The notes under the pieces are model-generated. The model searched no databases and was not told the DNA's origin. It saw only the letters and a list, made by a program, of their open reading frames with translations. The translations under genes were made by a program, and so were the position numbers. From UHGV virus genome UHGV-0113213: a stretch of 52,407 nt of DNA, one strand, 5' to 3'. Shown here piece by piece: positions 43,464 to 48,663 of this stretch (its first letter is position 1; every line of letters starts with the position of its first letter). The stretch is from a virus.

Positions 43464-43730
43464 ATGAGTATAAACATGATTAGTAAAGCATGGAACGTAA
43501 AACTTAATAGCCCGATTCAAAAACTTGTCTTAATGGCTCTGGCTGAAAAGGCAGATAACAAAGGACGGGTACATGATGCATCACGCAAAGAAGTAGCCGC
43601 AATGTGTGAACTTCCTGTTCATACGGTACATGATGCCTTCGCCGCGTTAATGGATAAAGGATTTGTTTGTCGTCTTGATGCATTCAGTGATGTCTATGTA
43701 GTGATGTTGCCGGGGGGGGATGATCTATGA
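43464..43730 (+). CDS. winged-helix/HTH protein (HTH_36-like), first gene of the rightward operon
   Basis: 88 aa from the ATG at 43464 (AGGAG SD). AWNVKLNSPIQKLVLMALAEKADNKGRV...S..EVAAMCELPVHTVHDAFAAL..KGFV. Confidence 0.6.
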   Translation: MSINMISKAWNVKLNSPIQKLVLMALAEKADNKGRVHDASRKEVAAMCELPVHTVHDAFAALMDKGFVCRLDAFSDVYVVMLPGGDDL

Positions 43731-44773
43731 AGTGGTTTAAGCATGACAGCGATGCGAACCGCGATGAAAAACTTCAAAACGTTTTGTTAGATTATGGCCT
43801 GGAAGGGTACGGGCTTTATTGGTATTGCCTCGAACTAATAACTTATGACGTAGATCAGCACAATCTGAATTTTGACCTACGACATGACGCGAGAATCATT
43901 GCGCGAAACGTCGGATCGACTGAAAAACGTATAGAAGAAATGATGAAATACTTCATCGAAATTGGTTTGTTTGAATGTTCTCAAGGCCACATAACTTGTT
44001 TAAAGTTATTGAAAAGGCTTGATCAATCAATGACTTCTAAAAGCGCGTACAGGGCCGCCATAAACACAGCTAAGGAGCAATTAAAATTAGAAAAGTTAAT
44101 CAATCCAACACAAAAAGGTCATGATAGGGTCATGACCGGGTCAGGAAAGGGTCATGAATTAGAAGTAGAAGAAGAAAGAGAAAAAGATATATACACTTCG
44201 TGTATTGTCGAAAATGAACAAAAAATGTTCAATCGGGATGGCGTAAACGAAGCGGCATTGCGTTGTCTTTCCTTCTACAACGACAAGGCAGGATGCAAAT
44301 GTCGTGATGCGAAGCCATTCATAGAACTACTGACAGAAACAAAAACACGTAAAGCATATACTGAGGAAGAAATCACATTAGTAATCGAGTGGGCTTTAAC
44401 GCAATGGCGTAGCCGTGGTGGAACACCTAAGCCTATCAACATTTGCCGGGTAACTAAATTTGATGGGTATCTGGCTGATGCTGAACAATGGCGCAAACTG
44501 TCAGCCACTGCAAACGCTGCCGATGTGGTGGAAGCATTTAACAGCACGTTTGACGGTCTGTTACCACATGCCGAACTGGATCGGGATCTTGAACGTAAGA
44601 TCTATGCGTTCACTGACTACCTGAAAGACAAAAGCATCACTGGCTTTATTGCTTACTTTGAGGCGTTCAAAAACACGGCTTCAGATTTTTACTTCGGCAA
44701 TGGCTTTACTGCGACACTGGATTTTCTACTTAAACCAAAAACGCTACGTGATACACGATGTGGCGCTCTTTGA
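43727..44773 (+). CDS. replisome organiser / replication initiator (DUF4373-like N-terminus)
   Basis: 348 aa. MKWFKHDSDANRDEKL..LL..YGLEGYGLYWYCLELI. Contains an internal iteron array. Precedes the helicase module. Confidence 0.65.
   Translation: MKWFKHDSDANRDEKLQNVLLDYGLEGYGLYWYCLELITYDVDQHNLNFDLRHDARIIARNVGSTEKRIEEMMKYFIEIGLFECSQGHITCLKLLKRLDQSMTSKSAYRAAINTAKEQLKLEKLINPTQKGHDRVMTGSGKGHELEVEEEREKDIYTSCIVENEQKMFNRDGVNEAALRCLSFYNDKAGCKCRDAKPFIELLTETKTRKAYTEEEITLVIEWALTQWRSRGGTPKPINICRVTKFDGYLADAEQWRKLSATANAADVVEAFNSTFDGLLPHAELDRDLERKIYAFTDYLKDKSITGFIAYFEAFKNTASDFYFGNGFTATLDFLLKPKTLRDTRCGAL
44117..44160 (+). repeat. candidate replication origin iterons inside the initiator gene
   Basis: Four direct 11-bp units, GGTCATGATAG GGTCATGACCG GGTCAGGAAAG GGTCATGAATT (one helical turn apart), followed by a purine/AT-rich tract at 44161-44200. 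Confidence 0.6.
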
Positions 44774-44905
44774 CCAATCACGATCCGCAAAAATCCAAAA
44801 TTACCCACAAACAACCTCACCAGCTAGCTAAATCGCATGTGGTGCTACACTTGCTTACCTTTTTGCGATTAGCTCGTTATAGAGCGTTACAGAGAGGATT
44901 TTAAA

Positions 44906-45007
44906 ATGGACGGTAAACACGTTTTCGCCCTGGCTTTTGCCATCGCTGCGGCAATCGCTGTTAACGTCGCCTTGTTCGGCGGATTGTATCTGCTAGTTAA
45001 TCCATAA
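44906..45007 (+). CDS. hydrophobic micropeptide (33 aa)
   Basis: MDGKHVFALAFAIAAAIAVNVALFGGLYLLVNP. GAGAGG lies 10 nt upstream. Confidence 0.45.
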   Translation: MDGKHVFALAFAIAAAIAVNVALFGGLYLLVNP

Positions 45008-45147
45008 CTACCCTTCTACCTTAAAAATCGAAAATTAGCCACATGATTGCGCTTCTGGCGCAAAAAAGACACTGCAACCTTACAAGTGGGTTACGCGGTG
45101 GGTTTTTGCGTTGTAGCGCGTCTGAGGCGTTTTAAGGAGTTGGATCG

Positions 45148-46071
45148 ATGCGCAAGTTAACACATGATGAACAGGTTGCGGCTATCGCTAAGGTTAATCA
45201 TGATGTCGAAGTGCTTGGGGAAATTGTCAATAACAGGACAAAAGTATCCTGCCGCTGCAAGGTTTGCAGTCACGAATGGTCGGCTAGACCTTACAATCTT
45301 AAAAGCGGTTACGGCTGCCCGAAATGCGCCGGAAAGATGAAATTATCACACGAAGAACAGGTTGCCGCTATCGAGAAGGTTAATTCTGATGTCGAAGTGA
45401 TTGGCGAAATAATAAACGGCGATACAAAAGCATTATGCCGCTGCAAAGTTTGTAATCACGAATGGTCGGCTAAACCTAACAACCTAAAAAACGGGCGCGG
45501 CTGCCCGAAATGTAAAGGTTTAAAAATCGCACAAAGACGAACATTATCACACGAAGAACATTTATCCGCTATCACTAAGGTAAATCATGATATTGAAGTA
45601 TTGGGAGAAATAATAAACGATAGGACAAAAGTATTATGTCGATGCAAGGTTTGTGATCATAAGTGGTCGCCTAGACCTTATGCTATTAAAAGCGGGCAAG
45701 GCTGCCCGAAATGTGCGAAACACGGTTTTTTGTCACACAATTTCGGCAAACTTTACATCATGGTTGATGATCCTGAAGTGCCTACACAAATGAAAATCGG
45801 CGTAAGCGTTAATGAGAACAAGCGAAGAAATCGGGTATTAAAAAGCGCACATAAATCAGGCGTTAGAATCCCTGATTTATGTGTCGTGAAAACGTTAGAA
45901 GGTCCAACCGAAAATATCCATGAATTAGAAAGCACGATGCATAAATATTTCAGCAATTATAAAATTAACTTTCCTGTAAAATTTGATGGCAGTAATGAGT
46001 TTTTCTATTACAGGCCGGAAGTATTCGACATGGTAGAAGAAGCATATAAAGAGATTGTTTGCTGTCAATGA
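45148..46071 (+). CDS. triple zinc-ribbon repeat protein with a C-terminal T5orf172 (GIY-YIG-like) domain
   Basis: 307 aa. Three repeats of about 65 aa (LSHEEQVAAI.KVN.DVEV.GEI.N..TK..CRCKVC.HEWSA.P.NLK.G.GCPKC.G). The C-terminus KLYIMVDDP...KIGVS.N...R...L........P.L.....EGP.ENIHELESTMHKYF...K......GSNEFFY is T5orf172-like (recalled). Confidence 0.6.
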   Translation: MRKLTHDEQVAAIAKVNHDVEVLGEIVNNRTKVSCRCKVCSHEWSARPYNLKSGYGCPKCAGKMKLSHEEQVAAIEKVNSDVEVIGEIINGDTKALCRCKVCNHEWSAKPNNLKNGRGCPKCKGLKIAQRRTLSHEEHLSAITKVNHDIEVLGEIINDRTKVLCRCKVCDHKWSPRPYAIKSGQGCPKCAKHGFLSHNFGKLYIMVDDPEVPTQMKIGVSVNENKRRNRVLKSAHKSGVRIPDLCVVKTLEGPTENIHELESTMHKYFSNYKINFPVKFDGSNEFFYYRPEVFDMVEEAYKEIVCCQ

Positions 46072-46104
46072 ATATACAAAATGTAAACATGAGGAAATAA
46101 CAAC

Positions 46105-47223
46105 ATGTCACAAAGAAAGATAAGCGATGAGCAATTGATCGCTGAATATAACAACGGTTTAACGTACAAGCAGATCGCTGAAAAATATGGCATGTCAAAA
46201 CGCAACGTCGAGCGCCTGGGCGCAAAGCTGGCGAAACGCGGTTTAATATCCACGCGTCGCGCGCCGGGTTTTGGCGTCAATGGCGAGTCATTGCTAGTTG
46301 ATAAGGATGGCAATGTGATTATGCGCTGGATTAAAACAGCCCGTGATCGCGATGAAATGGAAAGGCTAATGCAAGCGGCTTGCGATGCTTTCACGGAAGA
46401 CATGCCACGCGCTGAGGCTGTGCCAGTGCCGGAAATTGATTTCCAAAAAAGCCTGGCTCTTTATCCGGTATTCGATCTGCATATCGGTGCGCTTGCGCAT
46501 AAAGCTGAATGCGGTGAGAGCTACGACACCGGGATCGCCGAACGTGTGTTAAATGACTTCTTCGACTACGCGGTGGGCGCTGCGCCAATGTCTGAAAAGG
46601 CTGTTTTGTTGTTAGGAGGTGATATTCTTCACACTGACGGCCTGTTACCAGTGACGCCATCAAGCAATCACGTCCTGGATTGCGATTCACGCTACGCAAA
46701 ACTGGTTTACGTGGCGATCCGGTCGGTCCGGCGTGCGGTCGGGAAGATGTTACTAAATCATAAGTATGTCGAGATCCAGACATTATCCGGTAATCACGAC
46801 CAATCAGGGATGATCTGGCTACGTGCGGCGCTGGCGGCTTTTTACGAAGATGAACCGCGCGTAACTGTTGATGTGTCCCCTGCTATCGTTCACCACACAC
46901 AGTACGGCAAAACATTCCTTGCTTACCACCACGGACACACCATCAAAAAACCAGAAAATTTGTTGTCTGCCTGCGTCTCTGACTGGCGGGAGGATTTCGG
47001 CAAGTCGTCGGCGGTTTACGCTCATTGCGGACACTGGCATCACCAACGGCTGATTGAATCATCGTTAGGCGTTGTTGAGTATCACGGCACGTTAGCTGGC
47101 AAAGACGCTTATTCAACAAATGGCGGCTGGCGGTCGCGTCGGCTGGCTGCGGTAATAATTTACAGTCCTGATCATGGGGAAATCGGGCGCTTTGTTTATT
47201 ACCCTGAATATTCCATTTTGTAA
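46105..47223 (+). CDS. HTH + calcineurin-like metallophosphoesterase protein
   Basis: 372 aa. N-terminal HTH (LTYKQIAEKYGMSKRNVERL). Phosphoesterase motifs DLHIG, GGDILH, SGNHD, HHGH, GHWHH. Confidence 0.65.
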   Translation: MSQRKISDEQLIAEYNNGLTYKQIAEKYGMSKRNVERLGAKLAKRGLISTRRAPGFGVNGESLLVDKDGNVIMRWIKTARDRDEMERLMQAACDAFTEDMPRAEAVPVPEIDFQKSLALYPVFDLHIGALAHKAECGESYDTGIAERVLNDFFDYAVGAAPMSEKAVLLLGGDILHTDGLLPVTPSSNHVLDCDSRYAKLVYVAIRSVRRAVGKMLLNHKYVEIQTLSGNHDQSGMIWLRAALAAFYEDEPRVTVDVSPAIVHHTQYGKTFLAYHHGHTIKKPENLLSACVSDWREDFGKSSAVYAHCGHWHHQRLIESSLGVVEYHGTLAGKDAYSTNGGWRSRRLAAVIIYSPDHGEIGRFVYYPEYSIL

Positions 47224-47241
47224 ACCGGAGGCGATACCATA

Positions 47242-48663
47242 ATGATAACCGAACAAGTAAACTCATTGCGGCAAGAAAGAGAATCTGCGGTTATCGGTGG
47301 CCTGCTGTTAGGTGGGCTTACTCCTAACGCGCAAGACGTTCTCGCTACTCTAGATCCTGAAGTATTCACTATTCCGCTATATAAGCGGGCTTTTGAAATT
47401 ATCCGTGCGCAAGCCAGAAACAGAAATCTCATCGACGCGTTACTGGTTGGTGATGAGATTGGTAATGAAAACTTTGTGCCGCTAATGCAAACGGCGCGAT
47501 CGTGCCCTTCTGCTGCCAACCTGAAGGGGTACGCACAGTTACTACGTGAAGAGCACCAACGTCGGCAGATGTTGGAACTCATCGACGATATGCGCTACAA
47601 ACTGGAAACTGGGACACTTGAGGTCGTCAAAGAGACGATGAAAGATTTTGATTCCCGGTATTCAAAATTAAAGGTAACAAAAGATCAGATTATCCCGGTG
47701 CTGTTGCGAGATGCTGTCCAGGAATACACGGAAGTGCTAAGTAAACGCATGGAGTGTGGCGTGAACTCTGACAACATCAAAACAGGGATTGACCCACTCG
47801 ACGAAATGTTAGGCGGCATTAACGCTACTGATATGGTGCTTATCGCCGGACGCCCAGGGTCTGGTAAATCGGCGTTGGCGTTGGCAATTGCCCGCGCGGC
47901 GGCTGAACGCCAATACCCTGGCGGAGAAGGTCAGCGGGTAGGCGTTTTGCTGTTCACGCTTGAAATGTCGCTCGATCAGATGACTGAACGCGCTATCGCT
48001 GGCGCAGGGAACTTGTCAACGGATTGCCTACGTAATCCGGTAAAACTGGATGACGAAGGGTGGGCGCACGTTGCCCAGGGGATGAGCGCACTTGCCGATC
48101 TCGACGTGTGGATTGTTGACGCATCACAGTTAACGGTCGAGGAAATACGCGCCACCACGGAACGGATGAAACAGGACCATCCTAACCTGGGAATGGTAAT
48201 GATTGACTACATCGGGTTAATGAAGCTGGCTAAGGCCGAACGTCATGATCTCGCCGTAGGGCAATTGTCGTGGTCATTGAAAATGATGGCGAAAGAGTTG
48301 CGCGTGCCAGTGGCGGCGCTGGCGCAATTATCCCGCCGCGTTGAAGAACGACCGAACAAGCGCCCTAACAATTCTGATCTGCGTGATTCCGGCAATCTGG
48401 AACAAGACGCAGACAGGATCATCATGGTCTACCGCGACGGCTACTACAACGAACAATCAGTTGCACGCGAGTACATGGAGATCATCGTTTCAAAAAACCG
48501 TCACGGGAAAACGGGTACTGTTTACCAGCGGTTTGATGATAACGGCAACATTTTACCATGCGACCAGGCCCGCGCGGCGTCCGCGTGTATCCAGTCAATG
48601 CAACAACGTCAGGCGACAAGCCGATTCTCCCAGCGAAATAACCAGACAAACTCATCTTTTTAA
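47242..48663 (+). CDS. dnaB: replicative DNA helicase (DnaB family)
   Basis: 473 aa. Walker A GRPGSGKS, IDYIGLM, SQLSR..E.R..KRP..SDLR.SG..EQDAD. Confidence 0.92.
   Translation: MITEQVNSLRQERESAVIGGLLLGGLTPNAQDVLATLDPEVFTIPLYKRAFEIIRAQARNRNLIDALLVGDEIGNENFVPLMQTARSCPSAANLKGYAQLLREEHQRRQMLELIDDMRYKLETGTLEVVKETMKDFDSRYSKLKVTKDQIIPVLLRDAVQEYTEVLSKRMECGVNSDNIKTGIDPLDEMLGGINATDMVLIAGRPGSGKSALALAIARAAAERQYPGGEGQRVGVLLFTLEMSLDQMTERAIAGAGNLSTDCLRNPVKLDDEGWAHVAQGMSALADLDVWIVDASQLTVEEIRATTERMKQDHPNLGMVMIDYIGLMKLAKAERHDLAVGQLSWSLKMMAKELRVPVAALAQLSRRVEERPNKRPNNSDLRDSGNLEQDADRIIMVYRDGYYNEQSVAREYMEIIVSKNRHGKTGTVYQRFDDNGNILPCDQARAASACIQSMQQRQATSRFSQRNNQTNSSF

Follow-up and report, generated by a model that had tools for sequence, protein, structure and literature searches.

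What is a gene with a nuclease-like domain doing inside the replication module of a phage? The question is raised by positions 45148-46071 of the UHGV virus genome UHGV-0113213, whose whole stretch of 52,407 nucleotides was analysed and is referred to here as the window. A first-pass annotation had taken this gene to be mobile, homing-endonuclease-like and accessory, or alternatively to serve in defence or exclusion; the former proves to be the best reading, with the T5orf172 domain recovered and the gene not universal at its junction. Most probably it is a free-standing homing-type T5orf172 endonuclease gene that occupies a cargo slot in the early (replication) operon of a temperate coliphage or prophage of the mEp021 group.

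This interpretation is favoured because the protein has the T5orf172 domain and fold, with invariant candidate catalytic and zinc-ligand residues and purifying selection on the nuclease domain. It is further favoured by the precise presence or absence of the gene, the polymorphism of its slot, the uncoupled histories of cassette and flanks and the constant site of its relatives, and also by the occurrence of a like array on other nucleases in other phages and of a second nuclease slot in the group.

Architecture of the predicted endonuclease

The open reading frame (ORF) is real, as had been annotated, coding for 307 aa on the plus strand and a Shine-Dalgarno sequence that is also kept in other cassette-bearing genomes (Table 1). 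The whole protein matches phrog_681, 'endonuclease', in PHROGs with an E value of 2.7e-57, and its zinc-finger part also matches phrog_559, 'HNH endonuclease'. The C-terminal T5orf172 domain, which the first-pass annotation had named, is recovered by Pfam search (PF10544, cutoff 20 bits), the whole protein scoring 27.3 bits and the isolated domain 29.4; the family MUG113 is matched as well (26 bits, cutoff 22.3). The T5orf172 profile is matched by 20 of 20 family members tested.

An alignment of 43 three-unit homologues displays invariance of Y203, K216, G218, R226, E261, H265 and E284, and Y203, K216, G218, R226 and E284 are also invariant in an alignment of 20 domain homologues. The isolated C-terminal domain was modelled with a predicted local distance difference test score (pLDDT) of 94.6 and a predicted template modelling score (pTM) of 0.85. 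The domains of the full-length AlphaFold model are confident (mean pLDDT 85.7) and its pTM is low (0.43), which would be expected of modules on flexible linkers. The domain has the GIY-YIG alpha/beta fold with its beta-beta-alpha-beta-alpha core, and R226 is located at the start of helix 223-236 in the AlphaFold2 (AF2) model. Foldseek with the full-length model was uninformative. When the nuclease domain was searched against PDB sequences, by sequence as well as by profile, nothing meaningful was matched, so that its tie to solved GIY-YIG structures is provided by Pfam clan membership and the fold. From their position, we infer that R226 and E284 correspond to R27 and E75 of I-TevI, and E284 to E180 of Odn. 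The median pairwise ratio of non-synonymous to synonymous substitution rates (dN/dS) of the nuclease domain is 0.13, indicating purifying selection and hence a functional protein which is not decaying.

The N-terminal part consists of three units, which Tandem Repeats Finder detects across 45157-45714 with periods of 186 and 201 bp and 77-80% matches. The in-register cores are 171 nt (57 aa) long and are 76-80% identical in DNA and 67-74% in protein; the three repeats annotated earlier, with boundaries about right, thus stand, while their DNA identity had been understated at about 70%. Each unit follows the pattern C-x-C-x2-C...x16...C-x2-C, and the zinc-ligand cysteines of all three are invariant in the alignment of three-unit homologues. 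Pfam assigns three stretches to DUF4379, the 'probable treble clef zinc finger' (70.6 bits, cutoff 24.5), and three to the CapR homology domain PF21817 (64 bits, cutoff 24.2). In the AF2 model the unit folds as a helix, three strands and short helices, with the cysteine pairs on a knuckle and at the start of a helix; C37 and C40 of unit 1 follow strand 33-37 and C57 and C60 open helix 58-63, and the same holds for units 2 and 3. The cysteine units earlier described as zinc ribbons do appear as metal-binding units, but are better called treble-clef (CapR/DUF4379-type) zinc fingers.

Variable positions cluster at 24-28, 38, 43-47, 50 and 52 of the unit. The dN/dS of the units ranges from 0.12 to 0.37, with a higher dN than that of the nuclease domain. 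Across 115 proteins, 355 units have the standard length of 57 aa; their zinc-binding halves fall into 260 clusters at ≥ 88% identity, and 7 of the 13 clusters present in at least three proteins occur at differing array positions. The similarity of the zinc-binding half is uncoupled from that of the N-terminal half, as evident from unit 3 of the window and unit 2 of a four-unit homologue (P0015), which share 96% and 65%, respectively. The best 120 of 1916 homologues carry two (18 proteins), three (51), four (39), five (6) or six (3) units, and a few of these 120 have the identical array type fused to a Vsr/DUF559-like C-terminus. As judged from sequence, the array is a variable set of shuffled modules.

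The 1916 database homologues were collected at E ≤ 1e-5; the best 120 come mostly from E. coli, and NCBI names the homologues 'GIY-YIG nuclease family protein' or 'zinc-ribbon domain-containing protein'. Relatives were found by tblastn in 423 phage records, including T5-like and rV5-like coliphages and phages of Staphylococcus, Listeria and Streptococcus, and the zinc-finger part is often annotated there as an HNH or VSR homing endonuclease. In other phages a like zinc-finger array is joined to HNH or Vsr/DUF559-like nucleases.

Occupancy of the slot and history of the cassette

The window is related to the 'mEpimmI' (mEp021-group) Nus-dependent temperate coliphages mEp021, mEp010, mEp013, mEp044, mEp515, mEp554 and MagusPhagus. 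Homology to MagusPhagus and mEp010, isolated phages whose slot is empty, ends at 45121 and restarts at 46067. Where the window has 945 bp, the empty sites have 9 bp (TTTACGGAA), and the empty slot of these two phages includes GTAGCGCGTTTTACGGAAAATAAATATACATTCTGTAAACC; the same 945 bp against 9 bp, at identical boundaries, was found in the six empty genomes compared. The right edge is ambiguous up to 46081, since AAT[G/A]AATATACA is common to the empty sites and AAA at 46079-46081 is confined to gene-bearing genomes. Directly 3' of the stop codon, 8 of 8 gene-bearing genomes have ATATACAAAA[T/C]G, and at that point all 10 gene-less genomes have ATATAC[A/G]TT[C/T] or another junction; given this gene-linked sequence, the cassette may reach 46081.

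Besides being empty, the slot may hold other cargo. It contains a Bro-N + KilAC (ANT) gene in mEp515 and mEp554, a Bro-N gene together with a Rha + KilAC gene in mEp044, and a DUF559 gene in E. coli M15. Among 35 complete E. coli genomes with the junction, 12 have the gene, 7 are empty, 14 bear other cargo (Ant, Rha, BRO, KilAC, DUF559 or hypothetical genes) and 2 could not be resolved. The gene is therefore not universal at this junction, a comparison that the first-pass annotation had put forward as a check. It is accessory and dispensable for replication, because mEp010 and MagusPhagus are viable phages without it; a core replication role, for instance that of a helicase loader, was rejected on the same ground.

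Orthologues sharing the slot and the cassette boundaries are mEp021_12 (AXN54131.1, 'putative zinc-ribbon domain-containing protein', 495 aa) and mEp013_12 (WWQ70293.1, annotated as 178 aa). Their nuclease domains have 84-89% protein identity to that of the window, but in place of its three units mEp021_12 carries six and mEp013_12 one. The mEpimmI genome paper does not discuss the nuclease gene, the slot or these orthologues. Close homologues (69-75% identity) are always found in this slot, even beside another initiator type, a constancy expected for a site-specific element.

Further observations concern the cargo. By eye, the mEp044 Bro-N protein (L007, 3291-3902) and the M15 slot protein (L009, 3860-4915) have a similar C-terminal region, LxGVKLIRQYPV...IDGYDPVNN.A.EIDE, which in the M15 protein matches Pfam DUF559 (a PD-(D/E)xK-type nuclease); nucleases may therefore account for at least two more of the slot occupants, namely these two proteins. 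In E. coli MLI107 a near-identical copy of the window gene is followed, at 4774-4949 of L008, by an extra 144 bp, which at its 3' end agrees with that of the DUF559 cassette of M15 over the parts compared. The M15 cassette starts with CTGAGGCGTT, as does the zinc-finger cassette. The MLI107 remnant and the M15 cassette suggest successive replacement of nuclease cargo at the slot.

The window and MLI107 are 98.9% identical in the nuclease domain and 88-89% in the adjacent 300-bp flanks, whereas MS21-1 and MLI107 are 95-98% identical in the left flank and 78.5% in the nuclease domain. The histories of cassette and flanks thus appear uncoupled.

The base composition and expression signals also bear on the role of the gene. 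Its guanine-plus-cytosine (GC) content is 40.4% (36.7% in the nuclease part), the 3rd percentile among segments of the same size, compared to 45.9% for the window, 50.5-51.1% for the downstream genes and 41.8% for the upstream initiator gene. The AT-richness reported earlier is therefore evident against the window and the downstream genes, but not against the initiator gene. A promoter and terminator scan found no promoter-like site upstream of the nuclease gene on its own strand, and the minus-strand 'terminators' predicted inside the gene were dismissed as its repeated GCPKC codons. The orientation of the gene, its own strong Shine-Dalgarno sequence and the lack of a predicted upstream promoter indicate that it is probably expressed together with the early replication genes.

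It is hardly likely at all that a prophage expresses the gene for defence or superinfection exclusion, so as to shield the lysogen from other phages. The gene is AT-rich accessory cargo, as such a role would have it; however, it is co-oriented within a repressor-controlled early lytic operon, its neighbours are replication genes, and its closest characterised relatives are phage homing-type nucleases. The sole match in PADLOC-DB, PDC-S57, is marginal (E 1e-4, 20 bits) and covers the nuclease domain only. The earlier suggestion of defence or exclusion has accordingly gained little direct support.

Homing, domestication or regulation

The proposed course of events would begin with transcription of the gene along with the replication genes after induction or infection. 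By analogy with related systems, the three CapR/DUF4379-type treble-clef fingers, arranged like beads on a string, would bind specific DNA, with the composition and length of the array setting the specificity, and the C-terminal T5orf172 (GIY-YIG-fold) domain would cut nearby DNA via the invariant Arg226/Glu284 pair. The target would most likely lie in related phage genomes lacking the cassette, either of a co-infecting phage or of a resident prophage, and recombinational repair from the cassette-bearing genome would then spread the cassette and/or exclude competitor alleles. An intron- or intein-encoded endonuclease was also considered and rejected, the gene being a free-standing ORF in an intergenic slot.

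Free-standing genes between conserved genes are likewise known from the GIY-YIG homing endonucleases I-TevI and Seg/Mob of phage T4. In comparison to these, the window protein has the reverse domain order, with the nuclease at the C-terminus, the T5orf172 variant motif LYI...KIG instead of GIY...YIG, and a DNA-binding part made of a tandem array of a single module type.

Several points weigh against homing. Mosaic recombination of phages could by itself yield the uncoupled histories, and a flank association test detected no fixed gene-linked flank differences and only weak linkage within ~100 bp, that is, no clear signature of co-conversion; a 3-nt gene-linked difference at 46079-46081, seen by eye, may belong to the cassette. 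Strong purifying selection together with deep allelic diversity at one locus would also fit a beneficial, domesticated gene. For the window protein neither a cleavage site nor a target or a homing event is known, and sequence by itself does not allow active homing to be inferred (PMC10448857).

The selection and diversity lead to an alternative, which is possible albeit unlikely, of a domesticated nuclease that aids the phage as Odn aids ICP1, by cutting a competitor (prophage, satellite or plasmid) at a sequence read by the array, instead of spreading itself; array variation would then reflect an arms race. Odn (ICP1 gp88) is an origin-directed T5orf172 nuclease, sequence-directed and inactivated by E180A (Barth et al. 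2021, PMC8263062), and it is the one member of the T5orf172 family for which DNA cleavage has been shown (PMC8263062). Like the window protein, it has a C-terminal T5orf172 domain with conserved Arg and Glu (E180, of which E284 is the proposed equivalent), and the window protein appears, from the sequence and conserved columns, to be devoid of a conserved His/Tyr at the usual first-helix position, as was described for Odn (PMC8263062). Precedents thus exist in Odn and in Odn-like coliphage genes. The strong purifying selection on the nuclease domain, the long-standing occupation of a single locus by very diverse alleles, which have 1-6 units and recognition halves in shuffled combinations, and the conflict-type nature of the other slot occupants (Bro-N/KilAC/Rha antirepressors and a DUF559 nuclease) are all in agreement with such a role. 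However, Odn has as its DNA-binding part a RepA_N domain taken over from the satellite that it targets, and the role of Odn against the satellite is demonstrated, whereas the window protein has a zinc-finger array, with neither RepA_N nor another domain borrowed from a recognisable target, and no candidate target was identified. The precise presence or absence with an empty site is equally expected of a selfish homing gene, and the two roles are not mutually exclusive.

More speculative, and rather unlikely, is the idea that the slot holds a rapidly re-programmable natural 'zinc-finger nuclease' system, in which arrays of 1-6 CapR-type modules, assembled from shuffled recognition halves, are coupled to a conserved T5orf172 cutter and selected in an arms race of co-resident temperate phages or satellites. 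Should every module recognise a short DNA word that can be defined, a modular recognition code would become readable from the allelic series at this one locus.

The array could also act without cleavage, as does CapR of PLE or I-TevI in its repressor mode, binding a promoter or origin and tuning the expression of early or replication genes. CapR, a repressor of the PLE satellite of Vibrio cholerae, binds DNA via a cysteine-dependent zinc finger, which is homologous to the N-terminal domains of putative ICP1 T5orf172 homing endonucleases (Netter et al. 2021, PMC8096241) and, through PF21817, to the units of the window protein. The CapR homology domain match, with CapR a proven repressor, and the position of the gene next to an initiator gene with internal iterons (44117-44157) are in line with this, as is the first description of T5orf172 as shuffled with Bro-N/KilA DNA-binding domains, which also occupy the slot (PMC8096241, citing Iyer et al.). 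The cysteine patterns differ, being CxxC...(24-26)...CxC in CapR (PMC8096241) and CxCxxC...(16)...CxxC in the window. While CapR is regarded as a domesticated derivative (PMC8096241), the window protein keeps its conserved nuclease domain, which is intact and in which purifying selection acts on invariant Arg/Glu and core residues; viable phages lack the gene, and no repeated DNA motif fitting a three-unit array was found nearby. A purely regulatory role is therefore very improbable. The search for repeats near the gene that would fit three modules returned only the initiator iterons and a few short two-copy repeats.

Neighbouring features and place among T5orf172 genes

Table 1. Features of the locus, in positions of the window
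Feature	Position	Strand	Basis or remark
ORF of 307 aa, three zinc-finger modules + T5orf172 (GIY-YIG superfamily) nuclease domain	45148-46071	+	Pfam, PHROGs, homologues
Shine-Dalgarno AAGGAG, 8 nt upstream of ATG, within cassette	45134-45139	+	read from sequence
Cassette, present or absent as a unit	45122-46081 (minimal extent 45122-46066)	+	comparison with empty sites
Zinc-finger unit 1, CapR/DUF4379 type, aa 4-60	45157-45327	+	Tandem Repeats Finder, Pfam, AF2 model
Zinc-finger unit 2, aa 66-122	45343-45513	+	Tandem Repeats Finder, Pfam, AF2 model
Zinc-finger unit 3, aa 133-189	45544-45714	+	Tandem Repeats Finder, Pfam, AF2 model
T5orf172 / GIY-YIG-fold nuclease domain, aa 199-305 (Pfam match aa 202-293)	45742-46062	+	
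Candidate active-site residues Y203, K216, G218, R226, H265, E284	Y203 45754-45756; R226 45823-45825; E284 45997-45999	+	family-invariant
O-like/Lin1244 initiator gene	43727-44773		
Four copies of GGTCATGA at 11-bp spacing	44117-44157		inside initiator gene
Hydrophobic ORF of 33 aa (MDGKHVFALAFAIAAAIAVNVALFGGLYLLVNP)	44906-45007		in spacer upstream of slot
Exonuclease gene	46105-47223		phrog_704 'DNA repair exonuclease'; metallophosphoesterase at NCBI in one genome
DnaB gene	47242-48663		

The local order is a cI-type repressor on the minus strand, a small helix-turn-helix (HTH) gene, the O-like/Lin1244 initiator, the 33-aa ORF, the slot, the exonuclease and DnaB, which agrees with the position between the initiator and the exonuclease/DnaB genes given earlier. 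The GGTCATGA repeats look like origin iterons inside an initiator gene, as in lambda. The spacer upstream of the nuclease gene does measure 374 bp, close to the earlier estimate, but is not simply non-coding, for it contains the 33-aa ORF, probably coding for a small membrane peptide, which is kept in 18 of 18 related phage and prophage genomes irrespective of slot content. No RNA family was matched by Rfam on 44700-46150, so the spacer is not a known RNA element.

Directly before the slot, two repeats enclose the 33-aa ORF. One is a direct repeat of 21 nt, AAAAATC[C/G]AAAATTA[C/G]CCACA, with 90% identical copies at 44789-44809 and 45023-45043, 234 bp apart; the other is a 12-nt inverted repeat at 44786-44797 and 45099-45110, with 301 nt between the arms. 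In some prophages (L022, 3634-4626; L023, 3620-4612) the initiator module has been exchanged: a 330-aa HTH_36-type protein stands in place of the Lin1244-type initiator, and the order from the 33-aa ORF through the nuclease gene and the exonuclease to DnaB is retained. A further nuclease slot, likewise polymorphic, is located between the exonuclease and DnaB, where mEp021, mEp515 and mEp010 carry an HNH/'homing endonuclease' gene (L002, 5943-6446; L003, 5191-5745; L006, 4389-4979) and the window has only an 18-bp spacer (47224-47241).

In a survey of phage T5orf172 genes (Barth, Dunham & Seed 2023, PMC10448857), 87% were found to carry zinc fingers of the CapR/DUF723/'DUF4397' types, and these often occur as repeats in a 'beads on a string' arrangement. 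Copy number is altered by recombination between repeats, as in ICP1 gp174 and Vibrio phage Helene with its six repeats, and the homing-type genes typically adjoin essential genes (PMC10448857). That paper names DUF4397/PF14344 and the window matches DUF4379/PF14311; there may be a slip in the paper. Like ICP1 gp174, gp165 and the Helene protein, the window gene codes for a T5orf172 nuclease at the C-terminus preceded by an N-terminal zinc-finger array of the beads-on-a-string type, and it shares with T5orf172 genes of ICP1 and other phages the variable copy number of repeats and a site beside essential (replication) genes. The vibriophage proteins have ~25% identity to the window protein by tblastn. 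Unlike the ICP1 genes, the window gene belongs to a temperate coliphage or prophage, with a single orthologous slot that occurs with one, three or six units, empty or with other cargo.

The gene of the window fits this established class in every testable feature, and both its architecture and the changes in repeat number have published precedents in ICP1 and other phages. It is distinguished by its temperate-phage setting and by a neat allelic series at one slot in culturable coliphages; this adds a clean temperate phage/prophage case to a nuclease class studied mostly in lytic phages and leaves the picture of the class unchanged. The isolated coliphages span the states from empty (mEp010) through one unit (mEp013) to six units (mEp021) and other cargo (mEp515, mEp554 and mEp044), and the three-unit allele is present in the window and in several E. 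coli strains. This makes it tractable in E. coli K-12 to ask whether T5orf172 genes home, what they cut, and how the length of the array sets their specificity.
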